Notes: generated by a model from the sequence alone, not told the origin. 63,488 nt of DNA, filler included, from Rhabdomonas costata (GCA_019059605.1; 44 parts of 44 records of this genome joined end to end with filler, not necessarily neighbours in it); one strand, 5' to 3'. Shown: positions 5,774 through 53,823, numbered from the whole stretch's first letter. Numbers and translations: made by a program.

Positions 5774-7119
5774 TTGTGGGTGGGAAGAGATTGATGCCCT
5801 CCCCGCCGCAGGGCTACTCCCTGGGAGCGACGGAGGAGGGCATCAATCTCTTCCCATCCCCCTGCCTCCTGAAGCACCAGCAGAGCCCGGACCTGGCCCT
5901 CTTGGTACAAGAGCTGCCTGACCTCTGCGGAGGGGGACTTGATCCTAAGCAGCGCTGCCAGGCCCACCGCGAAGTTCTCGGGGGGTACAGCGCCGACAGA
6001 GTCCCCAAAGGAGTTGAAGGCGAAAAAAACGGACTCTGCCCGAGCCAGGCGCTCGTCCTTCACCAGGAGGGAGCGCTGGTAAAGCTCACTGCTTAGGAGC
6101 TCCTGCTGACCTTCGATACGGGCGCGGGCGTCCCTCTCCGCGTTGCTGAGGAGGAGAATATGCAGGTGAAGCGCAGACCTCTGCTGCGCCACTCTCAGGT
6201 CCATCAAATCCCTCCATGCGTCCAGCTGGTCCTGTACCACGGCATTCCGCTCATCTCGCTCAGAGTCCAATATGAAATTGAGCTTCGGATTGCGGCTCAG
6301 CCTGCGTTTGTCGTCGGCGGGCAGCGCAGAGGGCGAGTCCTGCATCCCTGGAATCACCGGGCAGGCCCCATAGAGCTGGAGCCGGGCAGCCTCCTCTTCC
6401 TTCACGATGAGAGCTCGGGCATCCCGCTCGGTGTTACGGACCCGAAGAGCAAGCACATGAAGAAGGAACTTGCGTTGAGTCGTGATGTAGGCAAGAAGCT
6501 CACTGTATGCAGTAATCTGAAGCTCCACGAGAGCTCTTCGCTCATCTCTTTCGGCATTCAGCAACTCGCTTAGCTTGCGCCGCAGATCACTGTTGGTAAG
6601 TGGAACGGTGAGGTACTGCGCCATTTTGGGGGCATTGTCCTTGTGGTCAGTGGTTTGTTCCTGGAGACTGGAACGCTCAGAAGGGGCAGCCGGTCGATCC
6701 TGAAAAAGATGATAACTGGGGTCTGTTGAAACATCGGGGCGGCGAGTCGCAGCACCGGTTAGATCTAGCATTTCCCCTTGCACAATCGCAGGTCGCCCAA
6801 CCTCCTGTATCTTGGGCCCCATAGCATTTCCTCGAACAGAAATATCACGGTTCTCAATGCCCGCGGACATGGATGTGCCAGGATCCGGCATCCCTTTCTG
6901 CAAACTGCCAGTTCTCTCACGAATTTGAAGGCGACAAGAATCCTGCTCCTTTTCAATCTGCACTCGGGCTTCCCTTTCCCGATGGTAAATACGCAAGGTG
7001 CCAAGCTGAAATATGAACTTCTTTTGGGCATTGTTATAGGCTGACAACTCACCCCAACCAGCAACTTGAGCCTTCACGATGGCAGAACGGCCACGTCCCT
7101 CCGCATCCAAAACCACCAC
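5774..7119 (-). CDS. Internal part of a large alpha-helical repeat protein (E-x-x-x-R-x-x-hydrophobic...W/Y-x-x-L repeats)
   Basis: The whole contig is one open frame (~448 codons) with recurring units such as LNAERDERRALVELQITAYSELL, LDSERDERNAVVQDQLDAWRDL and NTERDARALI/NAERDARARI, at a period of ~100 aa. Confidence 0.8.
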
Positions 7120-8685
7120 NNNNNNNNNNNNNNNNNNNNNNNNNNNNNNNNNNNNNNNNNNNNTTAATTAATTAANNNNNNNNNNNNNNNNNNNNNNNNN
7201 NNNNNNNNNNNNNNNNNNNGGTTTGGGGGCATCATCTCCGCCGCGGGGCACGCAAACCAGTCGTGGCTGAGCAGCACCTGGCAGCTCCCCCGGCCCGAGG
7301 GCTCGCCCTGGAAGCACACCTCCAGGAAGGCCCGGCCAGTGGGGCTGGCATGCGTCGGGATCTGGGGGTGCCTGCCACCTGGACGCACGATACAGTGGAG
7401 GTGAGATTAAAATTGCGATTGAGAGGCGAGATTGCTGCATTCAGGACAATTATTCATCAGCTATTCAGCATCAGAGCGGAAACTGTATCGAATCATTTGC
7501 TTTTCATCTTTCGAATTCTCTGGAAGGAGAAAATTCACCGGGGGTGGAGCGCACCTTGGCCGATGTAATACATCGCTTGGATGCCGTTGTGGAATTGCAC
7601 CTCCGACCACGGAAGTTGACCTGAACAAAGGAAAGTTGTGCCAACGTTCGTAAAAGGATAGGTGGCGCAAGTGGCGGTCGGTGGCCAAAGGTACCGGTGG
7701 CGTTGCGTGGACATTTTCGATGAAAACTCGTCATCAGTTGATGCAAAACAAGTCTTGCAATATTGACAAGGGGTGTGGAGTGCAGACTTGGAAGCTGGGC
7801 AGGAGCACGCGTTTGCACCCCCACCCCCACCCCATGCGCTGAAACCAACAGCAGCGACAGAATAACGTCCCACAAAAAGGAAAGCTGAAAACGCTTGCCC
7901 CAACCGAAATGGAGGGACGGTGGCACGGTGGCAAGAGGTCGTAAACGTTTATAGCGGTTAAGCAGCCCTTCCAATCCTTATCCCCATCCCTATCCTAAGC
8001 ACCCCTTTCCCCTCAAGCAGACACACACACCGGTGTACATCTCCACAATCGTACACCCTACGCACCACACGTCGCTGCCCACGCTGTACTCTTGCTTGTT
8101 GATCACTTCAGGGGCCCTAAACACAAGGGAAAAAACCCATTCTCAGTCAAGTGTCCACTCCACGGAACAACAGTGCGACTTTTTGCTGAGCAATGCGCAT
8201 GTTCCGTGAAGAACACCCTCCCCCTCGAATTATAAAATTATGATCTCAGCACCAATGGCGTTGAAGCAAGCCGGCGGACAAGCAGAATTGCTTCAATTCC
8301 AGACACTAGTGTGGGGAGGAATTCACATTTCTAGTCTTGCAAGCGACGGCATATGACGAAGGTCGGGAGTGCCGTCTACAAGCAGGAACCAATATGGAAA
8401 AAACCGCAGCTGCAGCTGTCAAAAGGGCCAAAACGTCAACGGTCCGCGGTGAAGCGGGCGCAGGGTGCAAAAGAGGAGAGTCAGTACATCCACAGAGTTG
8501 TCCCCTTCAGGTTGAAGCCAGTGGTAGTGGTCGTGGACTCCTTGCTGGTGACAAACTTGGAGCAGNNNNNNNNNNNNNNNNNNNNNNNNNNNNNNNNNNN
8601 NNNNNNNNNTTAATTAATTAANNNNNNNNNNNNNNNNNNNNNNNNNNNNNNNNNNNNNNNNNNNNTTGGTTGTTTGTGTAAATTT

Positions 8686-13695: not shown

Positions 13696-14855
13696 GTGGT
13701 TGTGTTTTGGTTGGGTTTCGTTGTTAATGTGTGGGTCATTGTGTGTAGCTAGGGTTTCGGGAGTTTGTCGAAATTGTTGCAGGACAATCTTAAGCGTTTG
13801 CAGGAGTTAAGGTAAGCTTTTTGGTGTTCGGCGTGTGTGCAGGGCTGCGGCACATTCTGCCGGATTGAGGAGGTGAAAGGGTTCGGGCTTTTGGTGGTAG
13901 TCTATTAAAGGGCCCGATGGCCTTTTTTCGGCTGAAACAGTGCCAGACGATTCCTGTGTGCTCAAGCAGTTGTTGAGTTTCAGATGAGACCACGCAGTGA
14001 GTTTCGCCTCTGTACGTGAGTCTTTTTCACAGGGCGACTGGAAAGTCACTACACGCTCAAAAAAAAAGTCGCTGGGGCAGCAGTTCCTTAGAAAATAGAA
14101 AGGGGGATGGCGGTGATGGGTGCGATGGGGTGGGGGCACAACAGTTGCAAAGCTGCAAAGCAATTCGAACCTTGACCCTAGGAGTACCATTTAGAATGCA
14201 AGTCAGAAGGCATGGCCTCAAAGACCGGGTTCCACGTGTACGCAGCAACACACCAGCGCGAACAAGTGCCGCACCGGCAAAGCACCAAAGCCAAAACCCG
14301 GACACGGCCAACAAGGAATCGCCACAGGGCGGAAGGGTGGACCCACACACCNNNNNNNNNNNNNNNNNNNNNNNNNNNNNNNNNNNNNNNNNNNNTTAAT
14401 TAATTAANNNNNNNNNNNNNNNNNNNNNNNNNNNNNNNNNNNNNNNNNNNNGGGGGGTGGGTGGAGTGGACGACCTTTTTCTGGGAGTCCTCTGCCTTCT
14501 GCGGCTATGCTGCGTACTTGGCGCGTTATTGTGTGTTTACATGAGAAAGATTGACCCATGGGCACGGTTCCTGTCACGGAGCGATGAGAGCTGAACAATG
14601 TGCTGGACAGAGGGATGAAAACCGAGCAACGAATCCGCCAAGGCTAATAAACAACAGATGTCGAAGGGCAAACAAAGAATCGAGAAGCTGCCTTGGCAGG
14701 GATGCGGGGCAAACCAAGCCACAAATATCTGTGCGCAAGAAGGATCCACACGTGTACTCCAACGCTGGTGCCCCCCCCCCTTTTTTTTTTGAAAAGACGC
14801 TGAAGCTGTCCGCGAAAGACTGTGGTTGCGGGGTCATAGCAAAGTGTCGTTGCAC

Positions 14856-15627
14856 CTCAGAAAGACGGGGAACTGCCCGTATGGGATCATCAGCCCCGAG
14901 AACAGCATCCACGTCAGCCCCGCCGCAATGCCCGCGATATGCGCTGTCTGAGTGTCCGGCAGCAGCACCGCAACCGTCACGCGCCACGAGACCATGGCCA
15001 GGGTGTGAAGAAAGCTTGTGGTCAACCAAAACACGACAGAGCTCATGCGGCAATCCAGCCCAACCTGAGCGCGCGTAATACACACATGAATCCCCAGGGT
15101 GCTGTTGGGTTGTTGTGTCGGACCTCTGGCATTTCGATCTTATTTTTGCTTGTGCAGCTGCATATCCGCGAGAGCTGGTTGGTGCGTCACAAGGCCAACA
15201 ATGGCCATGCCGCTGACCAGCGTCACCGCCCGAACGCCATGATCGCGGTTCTTGCGGGGTATGTGTGTTGGCCGCATAGGGCGCTGTTTCAGCATACACG
15301 TTGTGTTGGCCACAGGTGTTCGCGAGAGGTGACTTAGGAGCAAACGGTGTTGTGGGTACTGCTTCACCGCCGAACGATTGCCTCACTTCTGCCCCACGAT
15401 GTGGCATGTGTGCGCGCGTGAGTGTTGGGGGAGGGGGGGCATCTCGCATACCATCCAGTACCAGATTAGCACGAAGAGCACGCTGTTGACGATCAGGTAC
15501 GGTACCTCCACGGCAATCTGCACCAACCCGTACCAGGGGGCGGCGTACATCCGGGCGGCGCGCTCTCGGTAGAACACGGGCCGCTCCGTTGTCATCACAA
15601 AAAGAGCCCCACCAGCGTTCAGAAAGC
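14856..15627 (-). CDS. ABCG/PDR-family ABC transporter, ABC2 membrane domain (exons 15452-15627, 14856-15064)
   Basis: ERPVFYRERAARMYAAPWY...VEVPY...IWYWM|VGL...MLFSGLMIP; a GTATGC...CAG intron joins the exons in frame. Confidence 0.9.
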
Positions 15628-17505: not shown

Positions 17506-17994
17506 GCTTCTGTTCGACAAGGCCACCATGACCTTCATCAACATCGGGGAGAGGTGCAATGTCGCCGGAAGCATCAAGTTCCGCAAACTGATCAAGGACA
17601 ACAAGTTTGAGGAGGCCATGCAGATCGCCAAAGACCAAGTCTCTTGCCCCCCTCCTCCCCATTTTTGAAAAGCCTCGTTAGAATGCGAATTCATCTGCTT
17701 CCGTGTGAATGTCCGTGCCCTGTTCTTCTCACTGTGCAAACGAGCGCGGGGACCGGATGCTGTGTCCCCCAGCTCAGGGGATGCCCCTCCGCGGCTGTCG
17801 CCCAACCCGATCAATGATCAATGAAGTAGTTTCATTTCGGCTTCTCCAAAAGCAAAAACAAAAACAAAAAAACGTCAATAGGTCGAGAACGGGGCCCAGG
17901 TGCTGGATTTGAATTTCGATGATGGGCTCCTGGACGGCCCGGCGTGCATGACGAAGTTCTGCAACCTCCTGGCCTCGGACCCGGACATCTGCCG
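17506..17994 (+). CDS. metH: Cobalamin-dependent methionine synthase, pterin-binding domain (exons 17506-17638, 17882-17994)
   Basis: [71 protein letters not shown]; the GT-AG intron is in phase. Confidence 0.95.
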
Positions 17995-20675
17995 GTGTGC
18001 CAGTGCCCTTTTCTTTTTTGCATCACCTCATTTTTTCCCCTACAGTACATCACGACATAACAGATAATCAAAAAGAAAAAAGAAATGGTGTGCAAATTTT
18101 GCACCAAAAAATTCCATTCCTCGTACCGAATTCGACGCGGCTTTAGCACTTGTCAGGTCAACGTGTCCACAGCGATAGAATAGCGCAGGCACCATTTTAT
18201 TACTCTGCTGCTGACGATGGCAATCATGAACCCAAGCGCTCCAAGGCATGGGCTCGTTTGCAGGTCTCCCTCCAAACGGGTTTTCAGTCGGTTCGCAAAA
18301 GTTCCTAAGATGTTGAGGTTACATCCGCAAAACTCAGCAGAACGTTTGCGATGAATTTCAACCTGGAGTCGTCAAGCCCAGTAACAATGCCATTGTCATA
18401 GAGATTGAAAGGTCCAGTGATGCACCCCGCCTTTTTTGTGTCATTGTACAAAACGAGAAATTTAGCTAAAAGTTCAGTCTTACGTGCCAGATTTTGGCCT
18501 GCGCTTGCCATGAGGGTAGGTTTTGGTATACAGTGGCGCATAAATCTGCCGAAAAATGTTCTGAGTTTACTGTGTAACATACCTTACATTACTGAAGTGA
18601 AGGGAAGAGAAAATTTGTCCTTGTGTAGCTTCACCTCCCCGTCCTCCCCCGTTCCCCGTTCCCCTGTTTTCTCCTTTGTGAGGGGGGGGGGNNNNNNNNN
18701 NNNNNNNNNNNNNNNNNNNNNNNNNNNNNNNNNNNTTAATTAATTAANNNNNNNNNNNNNNNNNNNNNNNNNNNNNNNNNNNNNNNNNNNNTTGTTGGAG
18801 TAGGGTGGTTTTTAATACCGCTGGCGGGCTTCGGCGTGGGCTATTGGATAGATTTAACAATCGAGATCTTTTGAAAAACGTCTCCGCTTCTACAACAAAA
18901 TTCGTGGTTGAGCCAATCGGTTGCGACTAGATTGTTTGTCTGTGTCTTCTTTCCCCGGTATTTCAGCCTCAAAGGGCAAAAGACGGCCGCCGTCTGGAAA
19001 GAAGTGTGTTCTTCCGTCACCACGTTAAGATTGATTGATTGTCTATGGTGCCTATGTTTATGTAGGTGTTAGTATCCAGGTTAGGGGGCAATTTTGTGTT
19101 CACAGGGTCTCAGAGCCCAAGTCCTCTCGGCGCTGAAGTTCTGGTATGCGCACGTAGACATGTGCTGAGCAGACAGTTTCTTGCTTGCTTTTCTTTTTTG
19201 CTCCCTGTCTTAGGACTTGCGACGGCCATGCTATTAGCGGACTTGCGGTTTGGACTGAATTGAATATTGTTGGACTGAATTGAATATTTTACGCGACCTT
19301 TGGCTGCACGTCATTTTGATGCGTGATGTGGGTTTGCTTGTGCTCCAAACTCCTTCTTCCTTTGGTGAGGAGCTAAGGATGAGACTGGGAATCGATTTCA
19401 CCCGTAAATTACCAGTCGTGGTAATTCACACGTAAATTACCAGTAAAGATTCCAGGCCCAAATTTGGTCCAACCGATTCATCTTGATCTTGAACTGAACT
19501 TTTGCTGCTTTGTTCTCGGGAACCCAACCCCCTCTTTGCAACATTTCTCAATGCTCATGTAAAAACCAGTGCAATGGAAAGGCCAATTTCGGCTTTAAAC
19601 CTTTACAGCGCACTTAGCAGGGGGTCGCAGATCTCCTTCATTCCTGGCCTCATTCCTTATGGCGTGAGCTAAAGCGGTCGCGAAACGTTCCGGAAACTGG
19701 TGCTGGACCAGACTGTGTGTCAAGCGGCAGAACAGCACAAACGTATTGTGGTTTTGTGGTTAGTTTGTGGAACGTGCGTCACTTGCCGCCGCGGGCGAGC
19801 CCCTTATGACCCAAACTCGTCCGGAAGAAGAACAGCACCGCCACAAAAGGCAGTCCAAACCCTTCCATCATCCCCCCCGATTCCCTGGGGAAGCGCCCCT
19901 TTGCCCGCTGATTTGGTTTCAGGTGCGGCCGCCGAATCTCCCCTGCTATCTTTGCGCTTTGCCTTTTTTTGGCCCGTTCGGTTGGCGCCCACCCGGGTAC
20001 ATGCCCCCGAGCGCAAATGAAAGGGAGGGGGAAGGAGAGGGAGGGAGTGAAACGGACCTGCCCTCGAGTGGCACCCCTGCGTTTGCCACCGACACTTTGC
20101 CGGCTCGACTTTTCTTCCGCAACGTGGGCGCTTTCGCNNNNNNNNNNNNNNNNNNNNNNNNNNNNNNNNNNNNNNNNNNNNTTAATTAATTAANNNNNNN
20201 NNNNNNNNNNNNNNNNNNNNNNNNNNNNNNNNNNNNNTTTTGGGGGGGGCCTGAGCGTTTCCCGTGCCCTTGGCAATGCGGAGGCTAAGCGGGACCCCTG
20301 GCTGCCCCTCTCCCAGCAGCGGGTCTGCGCCTTGCCTGACGTGAGCCAGCACACGCTGCGGCCGGAGAACTGCTTATTTTGTTTTTTAGTCCTTTTTGTT
20401 TGTGTGTCAGTATGTGCATTCCCAATGAATCGGATGCTTCTCTCAGTTGCACCTTTTGAGGACTTGGATGGGTCAATGAGTTCATTAAAGGCTTTTAACA
20501 TCCTCACCGGGAGTACCCAAAGGGATGCCCCCGATGCGCGAACCATATCCTGGGCAAACTTCAGGTGGGAATCCTGCAATCCTTGGGCTTGGCATCGGGG
20601 AAAAGAAGGCAAGGGATGTTGAAATTCGAGCTTGTTGGGAGAGGGAATGTGCTTTTTTGTGTGGGACATACGTAG

Positions 20676-21575
20676 GTCTCGGGGAACCGGGTGGACGGGG
20701 GCCTGAGCGTTTCCCGTGCCCTTGGCAATGCGGAGGCTAAGCGGGACCCCTGGCTGCCCCTCTCCCAGCAGCGGGTCTGCGCCTTGCCTGACGTGAGCCA
20801 GCACACGCTGCGGCCTGGGGACTGCCTTGTGCTTGCCTGCGATGGGCTCTTTACGGCATGTTAGTTTCAAGCAAACCCTGACTTGCCCCCCCCGCCCACG
20901 GCAATTTTTGAACCTGTGGTCGTGATGGCGGCGTAGGGTACGAATCATCAGGGTCTGGGTTTTTGAAGGAAGGTCAACCGGCTTGCATATCTGCCAGGTG
21001 TAATAAGCTTCTCTCTTCTTTTCAGGAGAAAAGCTTCGGAATCCATGGTAACGCAGAAAGAATTTGGGGACGCTGCTGGAGTTAGGGTATCCCAGCGGAA
21101 GTTTTGCAGGGGCTGACCCAAGATCTCTGGCAAGTTTTTGGAACGTACTCTAGAAATGTGCAGGCTGGTGGAGACCATTACACCCACACAATGAGAAAAA
21201 TGGAAGCCTCCTGTGTGAAGCCTCCTGTGGCTGCTGTTTTATCAGGGGAATAGTAGTGATGACACCGTGATGCAGAAACTGCAGCAGAGCTATATTTGCA
21301 AGGTCTGCGGCGTCGAGTCAATCCTCTTTCTCTAATCCCTCCTGCATTTTACCATTTTCCGCATGAACCATGACTTGAGTCAACACTCACCCTTGATTCC
21401 TGATTCATTCAGCATTCATTACTGTCAACCCAAAGCTTTGTAGTTTATGCTGGTGTTCAGTGTGTGAATGCCCTCCCGCTAATCTTCCAATGTTGCCCGT
21501 TTGCATCACTGCCTGCAGAATGGCAACCCTTCCTCAGAGGGCTTGCTGGATGCCTTGCGCGGAGTGCTTGCCGAC
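20676..21575 (+). CDS. PP2C/PPM-family protein phosphatase (exons 20676-20855, 21246-21302, 21519-contig end)
   Basis: RVDGGLSVSRALGN...QRVCALPDV...DCLVLACDGLF. The downstream exons join in frame if the first intron uses a GC donor (GCATGT). Confidence 0.85.
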
Positions 21576-23191: not shown

Positions 23192-23374
23192 GTGGACATT
23201 AAGCTCAACGGCAACCGTGCAGTTTCTGGGGTGCTGCGAGGGTTCGACCAGTTTATGAACATCGTGCTGGATGAAACTGTGGAGGAAACCTCTGCTGGAG
23301 AGAAGAATGAGCTAGGGATGGTGGTCATCCGCGGCAACAGTGTCCTCAATGTAGAAGTGCTGAGCGCTGCGTAG
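23192..23374 (+). CDS. SNRPG: Small nuclear ribonucleoprotein SmG, last exon
   Basis: VDIKLNGNRAVSGVLRGFDQFMNIVLDE...LGMVVIRGNSV gives the Sm1 and Sm2 motifs of SmG; TTTCAG acceptor and TAG stop. Confidence 0.93.
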   Translation: MDIKLNGNRAVSGVLRGFDQFMNIVLDETVEETSAGEKNELGMVVIRGNSVLNVEVLSAA

Positions 23375-29276: not shown

Positions 29277-30207
29277 GGCTGCTTCTGCTGGACGTCACCC
29301 CGCTGAGCCTCGGTGTGGAGACCGTGGGCGGGGTGATGCAGAACCTAATCGACCGCAACACCACCATCCCCGCGACCAAGAGCAGGATGTTCAGCACCAA
29401 CGCGGACAACCAGACCAGCGTGGAGATCAAGGTCTTCGAGGGTGAACGGCCTCTGGTCGCCCAGAACCGCCTCATGGGTGTCTGTCTCCGCCTCCCTATC
29501 GGCGATGGATTTGAAAGAGATGTGGCAAGAAGGGCACACGCTCTTCCATGAGTGTCCTGCTTCCTCCTCTGCTGTCCACTGAGGCGACAGTTCCCACTAA
29601 AAGCCAGAGGAGGACGCCGCGCTACATCCTTCTAGAAAGAATGCAATTGTTTTCGAACTTGATTTTATCTTGATTTTGAAGTGACACGGTTTTTTTGCCG
29701 CGAAATTGTTTGCAAACTGGGTTTCTGAATAGACCCTCCCTTTCTTTCCTTTGAGCTGTTAAAGTTACATCATAATTAGAGACGGAGGTTGGAGTTAGCT
29801 GAGGCAAATGCCGGATTTCCCGCAAATACTCAATTTGAACCCACGCTCGGCTGTGTTTTTTCTTCTGTTAGCGTTTGTGAGAAACCCCATAAAAAGAAGG
29901 TTGCTCACCTTGCGCGCTAAACACAGGTTTTGTCTTGAACATAGTGATAAACTGAGTTTTGGAACATGACAAGAAGATGAGTTATGGAGAGCGCAAAAAT
30001 CCACTGAAAGAGCACCCGGTTTTTTTTGCGGGGGGGGGGTATCAACAAGGCGGCTTGCGGGGCTGGTGCTTTTGTATTCGCTTTGCACCGCTGCCAGGAA
30101 CGTTCAAGCTGAACGACATTCCTCCCATGCCCCGAGCCAAGCCCCAAATTGAAGTCACATTCGACATTGATGCGAACGGCATCCTCAATGTCTCTGCAGA
30201 GGAAAAG
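29277..30207 (+). CDS. hsp70: HSP70 substrate-binding domain, HSP70.4-like (exons 29277-29477, 30098-30207)
   Basis: [20 protein letters not shown]...RNTTIP...[22 protein letters not shown]...[37 protein letters not shown]. Confidence 0.96.
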
Positions 30208-30351
30208 GTGTGTCCAAAAATGGCAACCATGTTCACGTGTCTTCGGACATGNNNNNNNNNNNNNNNNNNNNNNNNNNNNNNNNNNNNNNNNNNNNTTAAT
30301 TAATTAANNNNNNNNNNNNNNNNNNNNNNNNNNNNNNNNNNNNNNNNNNNN

Positions 30352-31697
30352 CGGAAAGGCTTTTGGCCCAACCCCACCCACCGTGTTGCCTTTTAGTAGT
30401 TAGGCTGTGTGCTGGACGAAGATGGTTTTTGGAGGAGTGCTGCCAGCAACGGTTGTCCATTTGTGGACCGGAATGTACGGTACCGAGCCGTGCAAACAAA
30501 AAGCTTCAAAGGCCAGTAGCAGTGTCGGAGTAGAAGGCGCAGGTCGTCTGAACGAAAGCTTGGAGTGAAAGAAAGGCGCCGTTTAACTCCTGGCACTGCA
30601 CTGTGGTCGACTTGTTGATTTATTTCTAAGGGCCGCCAGGACAACGATCGAGAAAACGGTATCCGGGCAGGGGGAATTGCCTGTCGACACCTGGCAAAAA
30701 AATTTGTCCCCATTTGGCATTTCCTTTCCTCCTTTTCGCCCACCAACTCTTCTCTCATTACCACTCCCTCTCATCCCCACGATGCATTGCCGAACTCCGA
30801 CGGCAATCTTAGGTACACACAGGCGTTATGTGTGCACAGTCTCAGAGATTTGCCCCAAGCTGTATTGTCTCGTAGTCCATTTCAATGCCAGTGGTTCCAG
30901 TGCATCCACCGTGATACCAACCCTATTCTTTCCCTCTTCGGTTTTGTGTTCCCGAACTCGAACTCGAACTTGCACACTCTAACATGCCGCCTCCTGAAAC
31001 ATTGCAGTCGGCAATACTGCTGTTCTATACCGGAAGGCACAAAAGGGTGGGTGAGGTGCAGCACAAAGTTTACAGCTTTCACAAACACAATAGGATAAAA
31101 ACTGCTCCGTCTGCCTCAAACATGTCACCTGAAACCCCCGCGGTTTCATGAATTGCAGAAGTCGGGGGTTGCTTCAGCGGAATTCAGTGAACAGAAACTA
31201 AGGCCCGCTGTTCTAACTAAGACCAAAACTGGTTTTGGATTGCAAAATTTCTCGGGCTCTCTTTCAGCGTTCTGAAGGACTAACATACCTGGTTGGGTAG
31301 TGACCGTGATCAAGCAGGCGGTCCTACTATCTGGCTGTTGCGACTTGCACTTCTTGCAACGGCTGGGTAGTGCTCATTCCTTCGGGGGTGAGCACACAGC
31401 TTAATTTTTGGTAGCGGTGGGAAGATGCGCTTGCGCGTCGACCCGCCTTTTTCTTCTTCCAACATTTTCCAATATTGAGCACGACCGTCCGGCTTTGGAC
31501 AGCAACCACAGGAATGAGGGAAGGAATGTCCATTTGTGGACCGGAAAGGCTTTTGGCCCAACCCCACCCACCGTGTTGCCTTTTAGTAGTTAGGCTGTGT
31601 GCTGGACGAAGATGGTTTTTGGAGGAGTGCTGCCAGCAACGGTTGTCCATTTGTGGACCGGAATGTACGGTACCGAGCCGTGCAAACAAAAAGCTTC
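30352..31697. repeat. 1190-bp repeat unit (tandem array or circle) carrying the U1 snRNA gene
   Basis: The first 156 bp of the contig (30352-30507) are identical to the last 156 bp (31542-31697). Confidence 0.85.
31282..31447 (+). ncRNA. U1: U1 spliceosomal snRNA (~166 nt)
   Basis: 5' ACATACCTG (31283-31291). SL1 31297-31327 with U1-70K-type loop GATCAAGCAG. SL2 31328-31369 with U1A-type loop CTTGCACTTC. SL3 31370-31395 with a UUCG tetraloop. Sm site AATTTTTGG at 31403-31411. SL4 31416-31447. Order, spacing and length all match U1. Confidence 0.93.
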
Positions 31698-33577
31698 NNN
31701 NNNNNNNNNNNNNNNNNNNNNNNNNNNNNNNNNNNNNNNNNTTAATTAATTAANNNNNNNNNNNNNNNNNNNNNNNNNNNNNNNNNNNNNNNNNNNNGGT
31801 GGTGGGTATCACACCGCGTCAAGACATGGAGCTACCCGGATGTCTTGGACGCGGTGTGATACCCAGCCCCCTCTGTTGCAGTTTTGTTGGTGTTCTGCGG
31901 GGACCACGGTCACGGTTAGTGGGGATGGATTGTCTCGGACAATACCTTTGCAATGAATAAGACTTCTTTTGGCCCCTGCATGCCCCACGTATCGAAGTAC
32001 TGAACCTTGACTAGGCTGGGTCCCTTAATGCTCCCCAGGCCGCATTCCCGCACCATTTGCGCATTTGGGATTTGCCAAATTGAATCATCCAAAGTGTTTA
32101 GCAAGTCCTTCTCATGACCCCTCCCCCAGTTGCCTGGCCCCGTTCGGAGTGGGTTTGTTTTATGCAAATGCGTTTGTGGGGTGCTGTCGTAAACCCTCCG
32201 CTGCGTGGGGCAAGAAGCGGCACAAAAGGGATACCAGAGAGCCGCCCTAGGGCACCACAACCGGCCGAGGGTGAAAGGTCAGAGAATTCTGACCCCAAGG
32301 ACCGGCCACGCAGCGTTTCGGGCCTGTTGTATATACAAAAGACCCCAGGCCTGCTTCGGCTTAGCCCTCTCCTCCCCTCGTACTTCTCGTTTGATTTCTA
32401 AACCAGCTGCTGTGATTCAACTTCTCGTGAAAACATGGCCTTGGTCTCGCTCTCGCGTTTTAGGTTGATTACCTAACCCTGCTGACGGTCGCGCTGACGC
32501 ACGACCTGGACCACATGGGGTAACTGCGCTGTCTTCTGTCTTTTTGCTTCACCACCTTGGAATGCAGGAAACGGGGAGCTTGGTAGACATACACAACTGT
32601 GCGTCTCGGGGCGTAACTCACCCTTGCCACCACTGATGCTCCTTGTCCTCCTCGCGGTGGTTGTGTTTATTCGGACTGGAGATTCATTGGTCGTTTTGAA
32701 ATGATCTGTGTGCGTTTATGCATCAAACTTAAGCAGGATTTTTTCGATTAATTTTCCGGGCCCTTTCGCTTCGCTGCCCCCTTTTGCAAAGGCTAAACAA
32801 CAGCTTCCACCTGAAGGCTGAGACTCCACTCGGCATGCTCTCCGCGGCCTCGGGCTCGCAGGTTTTTGCCAGTCTGCGCGTTCTTGATGCTGGCGCAAAC
32901 GGCTCTGCCGCTGAATCATCCATAAAATGCAATCATCGCTCACCGGGGTTCCTTGGTGCCCGTTGGTGCACAGTGGTTGCCCCATGCCCATGCTTCTCTC
33001 GAAAATCAGGATCCTACCTTCTTGAAAACATGTCACCTGTCTTCTCATATTATAGCGTTTCTTCGGGCTGGGACCGAAGCACTTTTCTGTCTCCTTTTCA
33101 TTCATAGTCATAGTGCACGAGCTCACTTTCACGTTCACTGCTTNNNNNNNNNNNNNNNNNNNNNNNNNNNNNNNNNNNNNNNNNNNNTTAATTAATTAAN
33201 NNNNNNNNNNNNNNNNNNNNNNNNNNNNNNNNNNNNNNNNNNNCATCACATCCGTTAAAGAGGAAAGGGGGTAAGTACATCGCCCGGTGGTGTGAGTGTG
33301 CGGTAACGCGGATAGTCACACATACAGAAAGCTCCGAGCTTTGCCTGAAGGACTGACTGACCGAGGGCCCTCAAGAAAATGCAATGCTGCAAGAGCTCAA
33401 TTGCCGCCACACAAAGGAAAAAGTGCCTCCAAAAGCCCGCCAAGCCTAAGGAAAGGCACACACATCGAAACAAAACTTAAAAAGGAAAGGCGATGCCAAC
33501 CCATCCCGAACAAAGCACAAATTAGAGAAAAAAACCGACAAGAAACATGTCATCACGACAGTCAAAGCGGAGCACAC

Positions 33578-52877: not shown

Positions 52878-53823
52878 GTGGGCAGCAAATATAAGTCTGC
52901 GTTTGTGTGTGAAGGGAGCATCATTTAGTTATCCGGAAGAACGTGTTTTTTAATTAAAACTTTCAGCTGCAGCTCTGTTTAACTGGCTCGGCCGACGGAG
53001 GAAGGGAAACAAACGCCCATACCGAGGTCGCAGACGTCGGAGAAGGAGAAATCAAACGGAAACACAAGAAGCGCCGTCTCGGAAAGACGAGAAGAGAGGG
53101 AGGAGTCACTCCCACCCTTTACATTGTGCCGCGCACCACATCTTTGATGTTTGATGAGCTGTGAGCGTCCCGAAACCACGAGTTAGAGGAATTAGTTTTT
53201 ATAGCCTTTTCTTGTTCCCAAAGCAGTCTATTTTGCCTCTTGCGAAGACGATGAGAAGGGTGAGCTTTCATTTCGAGTCCGAAAACGACACCTTCTCCAA
53301 CGCTTCCAATGCCCTCTCTCCCCCCATTTCCGCGCAGCACCACCTGTAAAAAAGATATCACCTGTCAAAAAAACANNNNNNNNNNNNNNNNNNNNNNNNN
53401 NNNNNNNNNNNNNNNNNNNTTAATTAATTAANNNNNNNNNNNNNNNNNNNNNNNNNNNNNNNNNNNNNNNNNNNNTGTGTTTGTTGTCCTTTGTCTGAAC
53501 CCCGTCTCCGCCCCCATCCCTAGTAGTCACCGCAACTGCAACTGCAACTGCAACATTCTCCCCTTCCCTACCACTTGAATGAGTGAAAAGTAGCACCACT
53601 AAAGGGGGAGGGAAGGGGAGAATGTTGCAGTTGCAGTTGCAGTTGCGGTGACTACTAGGGATGGGGGCGGAGACGGGGTTCAGACAAAGGACAAGAAACA
53701 TAAACAAATATCCCCATCCGGATTGTGGGACACTTCCTGAGCTAAAAGCTGAGACGATTGTCCAAAGGTCAAAGCTCTTTGGTGGTTGCTGCGGAAAAAC
53801 GGGATATTTGGTGTGACGCGCAC

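Follow-up and report, generated by a model that had tools for sequence, protein, structure and literature searches.

Why should a U1 small nuclear RNA (snRNA) carry an altered base in its 5' arm, one of the best-conserved short RNA sequences of eukaryotes and one that lineages with shifted donors, such as yeast and the tunicate Fritillaria, usually keep? The question is raised by a U1 gene in a stretch of DNA from the osmotrophic euglenid Rhabdomonas costata. The stretch, which we call the window, is 63,488 bases long and consists of 44 separate contigs of 1,335–1,348 bp, apparently sorted by length and joined by 100-bp linkers made of 44 N, TTAATTAATTAA and 44 N (for example, at 1347–1446 and 31698–31797); the U1-bearing contig occupies 30352–31697. 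Because the contigs are unlinked across the linkers, the splice donors in the window are a sample of the genome and not neighbours of the U1 gene. The R. costata assembly is described as length-sorted SPAdes contigs, the longest of 8,093 bp, and the term snRNA does not occur in the main text of the genome paper (Soukal et al. 2021, PMC8219788). In our judgement it is likely that the locus is a functional multi-copy U1 gene of R. costata, or of a very close relative, whose A at position 5 (A5) fits GU(G/A)UG donors and is an inherited euglenid feature.

A cmscan of the entire window against Rfam 15 returned one match at or above the gathering score, to the U1 family (RF00003; 81.8 bits against a gathering score of 69.5, E = 1e-18), and this match spans model positions 1–166 of 166, identifying the gene as U1 by covariance score and by length alike. 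The motifs of loop I, loop II and the Sm site are all present and align to the model (Table 1); loop I is the U1-70K-binding loop motif, and loop II is the U1A-type loop. Folding of the 166-nt RNA gave a minimum free energy (MFE) of -78 kcal/mol, a value equalled by none of 200 shuffles (z = -4.95), and the Rfam alignment and the MFE and centroid structures agree on the same hairpins, a four-way junction formed with stem-loops I–III and followed by 3' stem-loop IV. With its motifs and stems intact and its match full-length, the gene shows neither the degenerate motifs nor the truncation of a variant U1 or pseudogene. The mature RNA probably begins at A31282 or A31283. A T5 run directly after the 3' end hints at transcription by RNA polymerase III, a suggestion that we set aside by reasoning from the sequence, the Sm site itself being an internal T5 run. 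Within the RNA, 31391–31404 (from the 3' side of stem III to the Sm site) is complementary at 13 of 14 positions to 31590–31603, 185 nt downstream, possibly by chance according to a rough estimate.

The 5' end of this RNA reads UAACAUACCUGG where the model has AUACUUACCUGG, and A31285 is aligned to model position 5, which is normally U. In the pairing of U1 with a donor, position 8 lies opposite intron +1 and position 5 opposite +4; in human U1, position 5 is a pseudouridine. This register agrees with Fig. 10 of Soo et al. 2026 (PMC13326754). Since it puts position 5 opposite +4, base 31285 is the reader of intron +4, and U31286, at position 6, faces +3. The arm otherwise keeps the canonical sequence, with 8/9 bases of ACUUACCUG and A5 as the sole change. 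Across all 63,488 bases, the pattern ACWTACCTG occurs once, at 31283–31291, and canonical ACTTACCTG does not occur anywhere. An earlier reading of the window, made from the sequence only (the sequence-only reading), had picked out both a full four-stem U1 and an altered base at the position facing intron +4, and the covariance match bears out each of them.

The contig that holds the gene also has an unusual structure: its first 156 nt (30352–30507) are 100% identical to its last 156 nt (31542–31697), and a prefix recurs as a suffix in none of the other 43 contigs. An overlap of this kind is what a tandem array or a small circle leaves behind when an assembler collapses it, and from the identity of the contig ends we therefore read U1 as a collapsed multi-copy, homogeneous locus and not as a stray copy. 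Each unit of the repeat contains two copies of a 20-nt motif, TGTCCATTTGTGGACCGGAA, which lie 80 and 197 nt beyond the 3' end of U1, 117 nt apart, and which may serve as a processing or termination signal. No Rfam match besides U1 was found in the repeat unit at E up to 1, no transfer RNA was found in the whole window, and the sequence downstream of U1 is no more stable when folded than shuffled versions of it (z = 0.41). For Euglena gracilis, Charette and Gray 2009 (PMC2784804) refer to unpublished work in which Southern blotting with a U1 probe showed one band and no heterogeneity was seen among clones, a result compatible with either arrangement.

We fixed splice donors by protein homology, and only a few contigs carry recognisable genes. 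The Pfam scans for exons covered every one of the 408 open frames that are 70 residues or longer and 300 of the 347 frames of 35–69 residues that are rich in G or C at third codon positions (GC3-rich). The curated cut-offs were passed by ABC2_membrane (two frames), LSM, DUF4139, HSP70 (two frames), Pkinase and PP2C, with a second PP2C frame scoring just under its cut-off; the remaining matches, such as NAD-GH on the antisense strand of Hsp70, were weak, below cut-off, and were rejected. Two methionine-synthase exons were spotted by eye and then confirmed with homologues; in the protein search with methionine synthase, none of the matches came from R. costata and the homologues reached 78% identity at most, and a protein search with ABC-transporter exon 1 gave no match. 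As sources of donors we rejected the LSM exon, a last exon without a donor, and the DUF4139 and PP2C exons, whose ends are ambiguous. The published Table S2 for R. costata gives 11,418 putative introns by their terminal dinucleotides only (Soukal et al. 2021, PMC8219788), which ruled out a donor logo from that source.

Seven donors were fixed in this way, one of them (GTGCAA) only probably. In the Hsp70 gene, the protein RCo014087 reads straight over the junction LMG/TFKL of the intron, the exons being identical to it, and matches the contig perfectly over two exon junctions; in the ABC-transporter gene, residues 1185–1244 and 1244–1310 of protein P0188 map to the two exons that flank the intron. 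GTGCAA is the only GT where ABC-transporter homology stops, and the contig contains no downstream exon. The register of the kinase donor is either 8030 or 8028 (minus strand), with T at +4 either way. The first methionine-synthase intron, with GT-AG ends, has a weak donor, GTCTCT, and an A-rich 3' end without a pyrimidine tract.

Table 1. Positions of the U1 gene, its parts, the surrounding repeat and the homology-fixed splice sites in the window. A slash marks an exon–intron boundary or, in protein sequence, an exon junction.
Feature	Position	Strand	Basis
U1 spliceosomal snRNA gene	31281..31447	+	Full-length match to Rfam RF00003; MFE -78 kcal/mol
Single-stranded 5' arm AACAUACCUG, 5' splice-site reader	31282..31291	+	Aligned to Rfam consensus AUACUUACCUG
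Stem-loop I, loop GAUCAAGCAG at 31308-31317	31297..31327	+	Rfam consensus loop GAUCAaGAAG; centroid fold
Stem-loop II, loop CUUGCACUUC at 31344-31353	31328..31369	+	Model CAUUGCACUuc, consensus AUUGCAC; centroid fold
Stem-loop III, UUCG tetraloop at 31381-31384	31370..31395	+	Rfam alignment; centroid fold
Sm site AAUUUUUGG	31403..31411	+	Aligned to model AAUUUgUGg; between stem-loops III and IV
3' stem-loop IV	31416..31447	+	Rfam alignment; fold
1,190-bp repeat unit with one U1 gene	30352..31541	+	Contig ends identical, spacing 1190
20-nt motif TGTCCATTTGTGGACCGGAA, internal GTCCA/TGGAC hairpin	31527..31546	+	Second copy at 31644-31663 (= 30454-30473 in the repeat), 100% identical
Hsp70 intron, donor G/GTGTCT, acceptor CCAG/GA	29478..30097	+	tblastn with P0001 (RCo014087)
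Hsp70 donor AAG/GTGTGT	30208..30213	+	P0001 goes on AEEK/GTKK; genomic read-through diverges
ABC-transporter intron, donor ATG/GTATGC, acceptor CTCAG/GTT	15065..15451	-	Continuity of the Pfam ABC2_membrane profile
Probable ABC-transporter donor AG/GTGCAA, C at +4	14850..14855	-	Alignments of P0188, P0189 and P0190 end at FPVFL(R)
Methionine-synthase intron, donor CAA/GTCTCT, acceptor AATAG/GTC	17639..17881	+	tblastn with P0121, P0128, P0129, P0140 and P0144
Methionine-synthase donor CG/GTGTGC	17995..18000	+	Homologues go on DPD(I/V)xKVP; read-through diverges after DPDIC
Protein-kinase exon donor within GGTGTGTGTC	8023..8030	-	Pfam Pkinase on open reading frame 7993-8142 (-), E = 2.2e-9

Among these seven donors, +4 is T in six and C in one, +3 is G in five, A in one and C in one, and +5 is G in four, C in two and A in one, giving the consensus GTGTGT. 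T stands at +4 in 1847 of the 6776 GT sites of the window (27%), and against this background the binomial probability of at least 6/7 donors with +4 T is 0.0022; when the donor inside a GT run is left out, at least 5/6 gives P = 0.007. The arm is complementary to these splice sites, each of the six +4 T donors pairing with it at 7–8 of 11 positions, compared with 6–7 of 11 if position 5 were U, and GTGCAA, judged by eye, pairs from -2 to +3 only. The sequence-only reading had counted 27 donors, with T at +4 in 18, C in 6, G in 2 and A in 1. Its preference for T agrees with the six of seven found here, and three of its four examples, at 17995 (GTGTGC), 30208 (GTGTGT) and 15451 (GTATGC), are among our seven, whereas the tally itself was not reproduced, few genes being recognisable. 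The donor consensus that it matched to the arm, GUAUGU, has to be replaced by GUGUGU, which makes a G–U wobble at +3, where five of the seven donors have G.

In the register given above, C8 and A7 of the arm would pair with +1 G and +2 U, U6 would pair with +3 A or wobble with +3 G, A5 would form a Watson–Crick pair with +4 U, and C4 would pair with +5 G. The change from U to A at position 5 would turn what is a U–U mismatch at +4 for the canonical arm into a base pair on the GU(G/A)UG donors of euglenids, and selection may act on this pairing.

A precedent for such a match exists in E. gracilis. By placing long-read transcripts on the draft genome of that species, Gao et al. 2024 (PMC11170887) identified 11,527 introns of the GT-AG type whose 5' consensus is GTGTG, and they state that all five of these bases pair with the E. 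gracilis U1, one of them as a G–U wobble; they credit the idea of this pairing to Canaday 2001 and Breckenridge 1999, who worked from few genes, and additionally cite a 2021 paper of the Milanowski group. Because a canonical arm would set U5 against +4 U, the E. gracilis U1 must, on this description, carry A opposite +4. The window U1 has the same arrangement, A opposite +4 and GUGUG fully paired with one wobble, a feature that for E. gracilis is taken from the text. Full-text literature searches for the E. gracilis U1 motif gave only primers and small interfering RNAs, and the motif is absent from the supplements of PMC11613528 and PMC11170887. We read the A5 arm as an inherited euglenid feature and not as a peculiarity of the R. 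costata genome. Complementarity to +4 U donors was published for E. gracilis in 1999, and on a genome-wide scale in 2024, and does not by itself raise a new question; the sequence-only reading, which left novelty open, was correct that the variant is real, but the idea is not new, this pairing having been reported for E. gracilis. The window contributes an A5 arm in a second euglenid lineage, one that is not photosynthetic, together with evidence of a repeated U1 unit; a second euglenid with A5 would mean group-wide inheritance and not a quirk of E. gracilis.

The link to R. costata comes through the Hsp70 contig. Its exon at 29279–29476 is 100% identical to the EukProt protein RCo014087, and RCo identifiers denote R. 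costata proteins (Soukal et al. 2021, PMC8219788); the identity of this exon to Eutreptiella gymnastica is 91%, to two E. gracilis entries 88%, and to trypanosomes 73–77%. The genome is therefore that of R. costata or a very close relative, and not that of E. gracilis.

Several observations weigh against our interpretation. Pfam scans of its open frames found no protein marker on the U1 contig, which is assigned to R. costata through the assembly that it shares with the Hsp70 contig. The donor sample is small, with seven verified and C at +4 in one of them. Two donors (GTGTCT and GTCTCT) have C at +5, leaving the pairing far from perfect; the donor at 17639 has C at +3 and belongs to an intron with an A-rich 3' end; and the kinase donor lies inside a GT run, where T at +4 is not independent of the repeat. 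Two annotation-free tests, in both of which non-donor GTs dominate, did not show the preference: GT sites with long upstream open frames had no excess of T at +4, and GTs near the 3' ends of GC3-rich frames had T at +4 in 110/433 cases, compared with 1847/6776 overall. We give these two tests no weight either way. That E. gracilis shares the A5 arm is almost certain, and is deduced from what Gao et al. 2024 write and not from a sequence. Finally, pairing at +4 is, on a comparison within the phylum, not obligatory, because the kinetoplastid U1 arm fails to pair at +4 of GTATG donors.

This last point leads to an alternative in which A5 is real and the +4 U of donors is ancestral and set by later readers, chiefly the ACAGAGA box of U6, the U1 change being a tolerated or weakly beneficial follow-on and not one side of a reciprocal co-evolution. 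Yeast uses GUAUGU donors with an unchanged U1. The cis-introns of kinetoplastids begin with GTATG, a "highly conserved pentanucleotide", and the kinetoplastid arm, AACUCACCUGCA, differs from the canonical one at position 6 and leaves +4 unpaired (PMC11613528); three diplonemids likewise have the donor (G)/GTATG (PMC12621601). In addition, A43 in the ACAGAGA box of U6 is described as contacting +4, where less N6-methyladenosine (m6A) favours +4 U (Soo et al. 2026, PMC13326754). Against it, the substitution falls on exactly the one arm position that restores a Watson–Crick pair, with the rest of the arm unchanged, and another euglenid, E. gracilis, is implied to have this base as well. We consider this alternative unlikely, and it parts from the explanation that we prefer only in which partner drives the fit. 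Donors with +4 T are reported across Euglenozoa; on this reading the preference for them probably predates the change in U1, and +4 U donors are probably ancestral to the phylum, a polarity that we infer. The sequence-only reading had placed the co-evolution of U1 and donors "here", in this genome, which is too local given +4 T in kinetoplastids, diplonemids and E. gracilis.

A second alternative would make the window gene a minor variant U1 or part of a pseudogene array, the working U1 being a canonical ACUUACCUG copy elsewhere in the genome. The search covered 63.5 kb of an assembly reportedly of roughly 100 Mb, and variant U1 genes are described in other eukaryotes, including the two U1 versions of the diplonemid Sulcionema specki. 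Against this stand the intact motifs and four stems, a score above the gathering threshold, an exact repeat locus such as is expected of a heavily used snRNA gene, and a variant base that suits both the verified donors and the report on E. gracilis, whose cloned U1 copies showed no heterogeneity (PMC2784804); we regard the idea as very improbable, and infer instead that the gene is expressed as the main U1 of its organism. Scarcely credible is an assembly or amplification error at 31285, or a contig from a contaminating eukaryote, even though amplified genomic DNA is mentioned in the author contributions (Soukal et al. 2021, PMC8219788) and the U1 contig has no protein-coding marker of its own, since an error would need to coincide with the position that restores complementarity and to match the state implied for E. 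gracilis, and a four-stem U1 with an A5 arm suits a euglenid and not a kinetoplastid with its two hairpins.

If a functional, inherited A5 gene is accepted, a broader history can be proposed, which we offer tentatively, as possible but doubtful: the A5 arm would be a shared derived feature of Euglenida that arose after +4 U donors had been fixed in the euglenozoan ancestor, the arm having mutated to match the donors. Euglenids would then be a rare lineage whose near-invariant U1 arm changed to follow its substrates. Both U1, through A5, and the ACAGAGA box of U6 would recognise +4 U by Watson–Crick pairing, so that the two may agree on +4 U, ending the usual conflict between a U1 that favours +4 A and an unmethylated U6 that favours +4 U. 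Such a history predicts weak or no methylation of U6 A43 in euglenids, and sharp discrimination between cis donors (GUGUG) and the donor of the spliced leader RNA (GUAUA in E. gracilis). Taken with the GTATG donors of kinetoplastids and diplonemids, the A5 arm provides a testable order of events for the co-variation of U1 and donors. In practical terms, gene finders and splice-site scorers for euglenids should adopt a donor model of the GUGUGU type.

Other contigs of the window contain features of separate interest. A PP2C phosphatase exon occurs twice on one contig, at 20245–20363 and 20697–20815, with 119 nt identical, after which the first copy diverges into non-coding sequence; this is either a local duplication or an assembly chimera. 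The intact PP2C exon, at 20676–20861 (plus strand), ends in CDGLF with no GT at the expected boundary, possibly marking a nonconventional intron of the kind known in euglenids. A 448-codon open frame fills the whole contig at 5776–7119 (minus strand), has no Pfam match and contains recurring ERDER/ERDAR-like motifs; it probably encodes a lineage-specific repetitive protein. The last exon of a protein of the Sm/LSm family lies at 23192–23371 (plus strand; Pfam LSM, E = 2.7e-19), with the acceptor TTTCTTTCAG just before it, and is a gene fragment for a spliceosomal core protein. Matches to microRNA precursors at 53519–53659, on both strands, we rejected as spurious: they score 33–54 bits against gathering scores of 76–90, hit plant and animal models and lie in a long palindrome of simple repeats.

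Comparison with known U1 snRNAs shows where the R. costata gene belongs. Canonical U1 (RF00003, the human/yeast type, with the arm AUACUUACCUG) has the same four stem-loops, motifs and Sm site, and R. costata shares 8/9 bases of ACUUACCUG with it; canonical U1 has U at position 5, whereas R. costata has A, so its arm prefers +4 U over +4 A. The tunicate Fritillaria borealis, whose introns are mostly non-GT/AG, has an unchanged U1 5' end, for which a terminal m6A is proposed to be helpful (Soo et al. 2026, PMC13326754); it faces the same problem of shifted donors, but the arm sequence is kept there and altered in R. costata. Within the phylum, the U1 of kinetoplastids resembles that of R. costata in starting its arm with AAC, in deviating from the canonical arm by one base and in serving introns with +4 T. 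In kinetoplastids, however, the change is from U to C at position 6, the RNA is short with two hairpins and the arm AACUCACCUGCA, and the U1-70K motif is CAUCAAGAAA (PMC11613528), whereas the R. costata RNA is changed at position 5 and retains the full cloverleaf, with 166 nt, four stem-loops and the arm AACAUACCUGG. Diplonemid U1s are euglenozoan, form a cloverleaf like that of R. costata and serve (G)/GTATG donors; their 5' ends are termed "conserved" in the published text, and of the two versions in S. specki the alternative U1 is C-rich, its arm being replaced by a run of C. Closest is the U1 of E. gracilis (Breckenridge et al. 1999; GenBank U57366.1 as cited in PMC11613528), like that of R. 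costata a conventional euglenid U1, with A opposite +4 implied; Rhabdomonas differs in species and order and is a primary osmotroph, and where the E. gracilis U1 gives a single Southern band, the R. costata U1 lies in a 1,190-bp exact repeat. We class the R. costata U1 as a probable, undescribed orthologue of the known euglenid U1 type.

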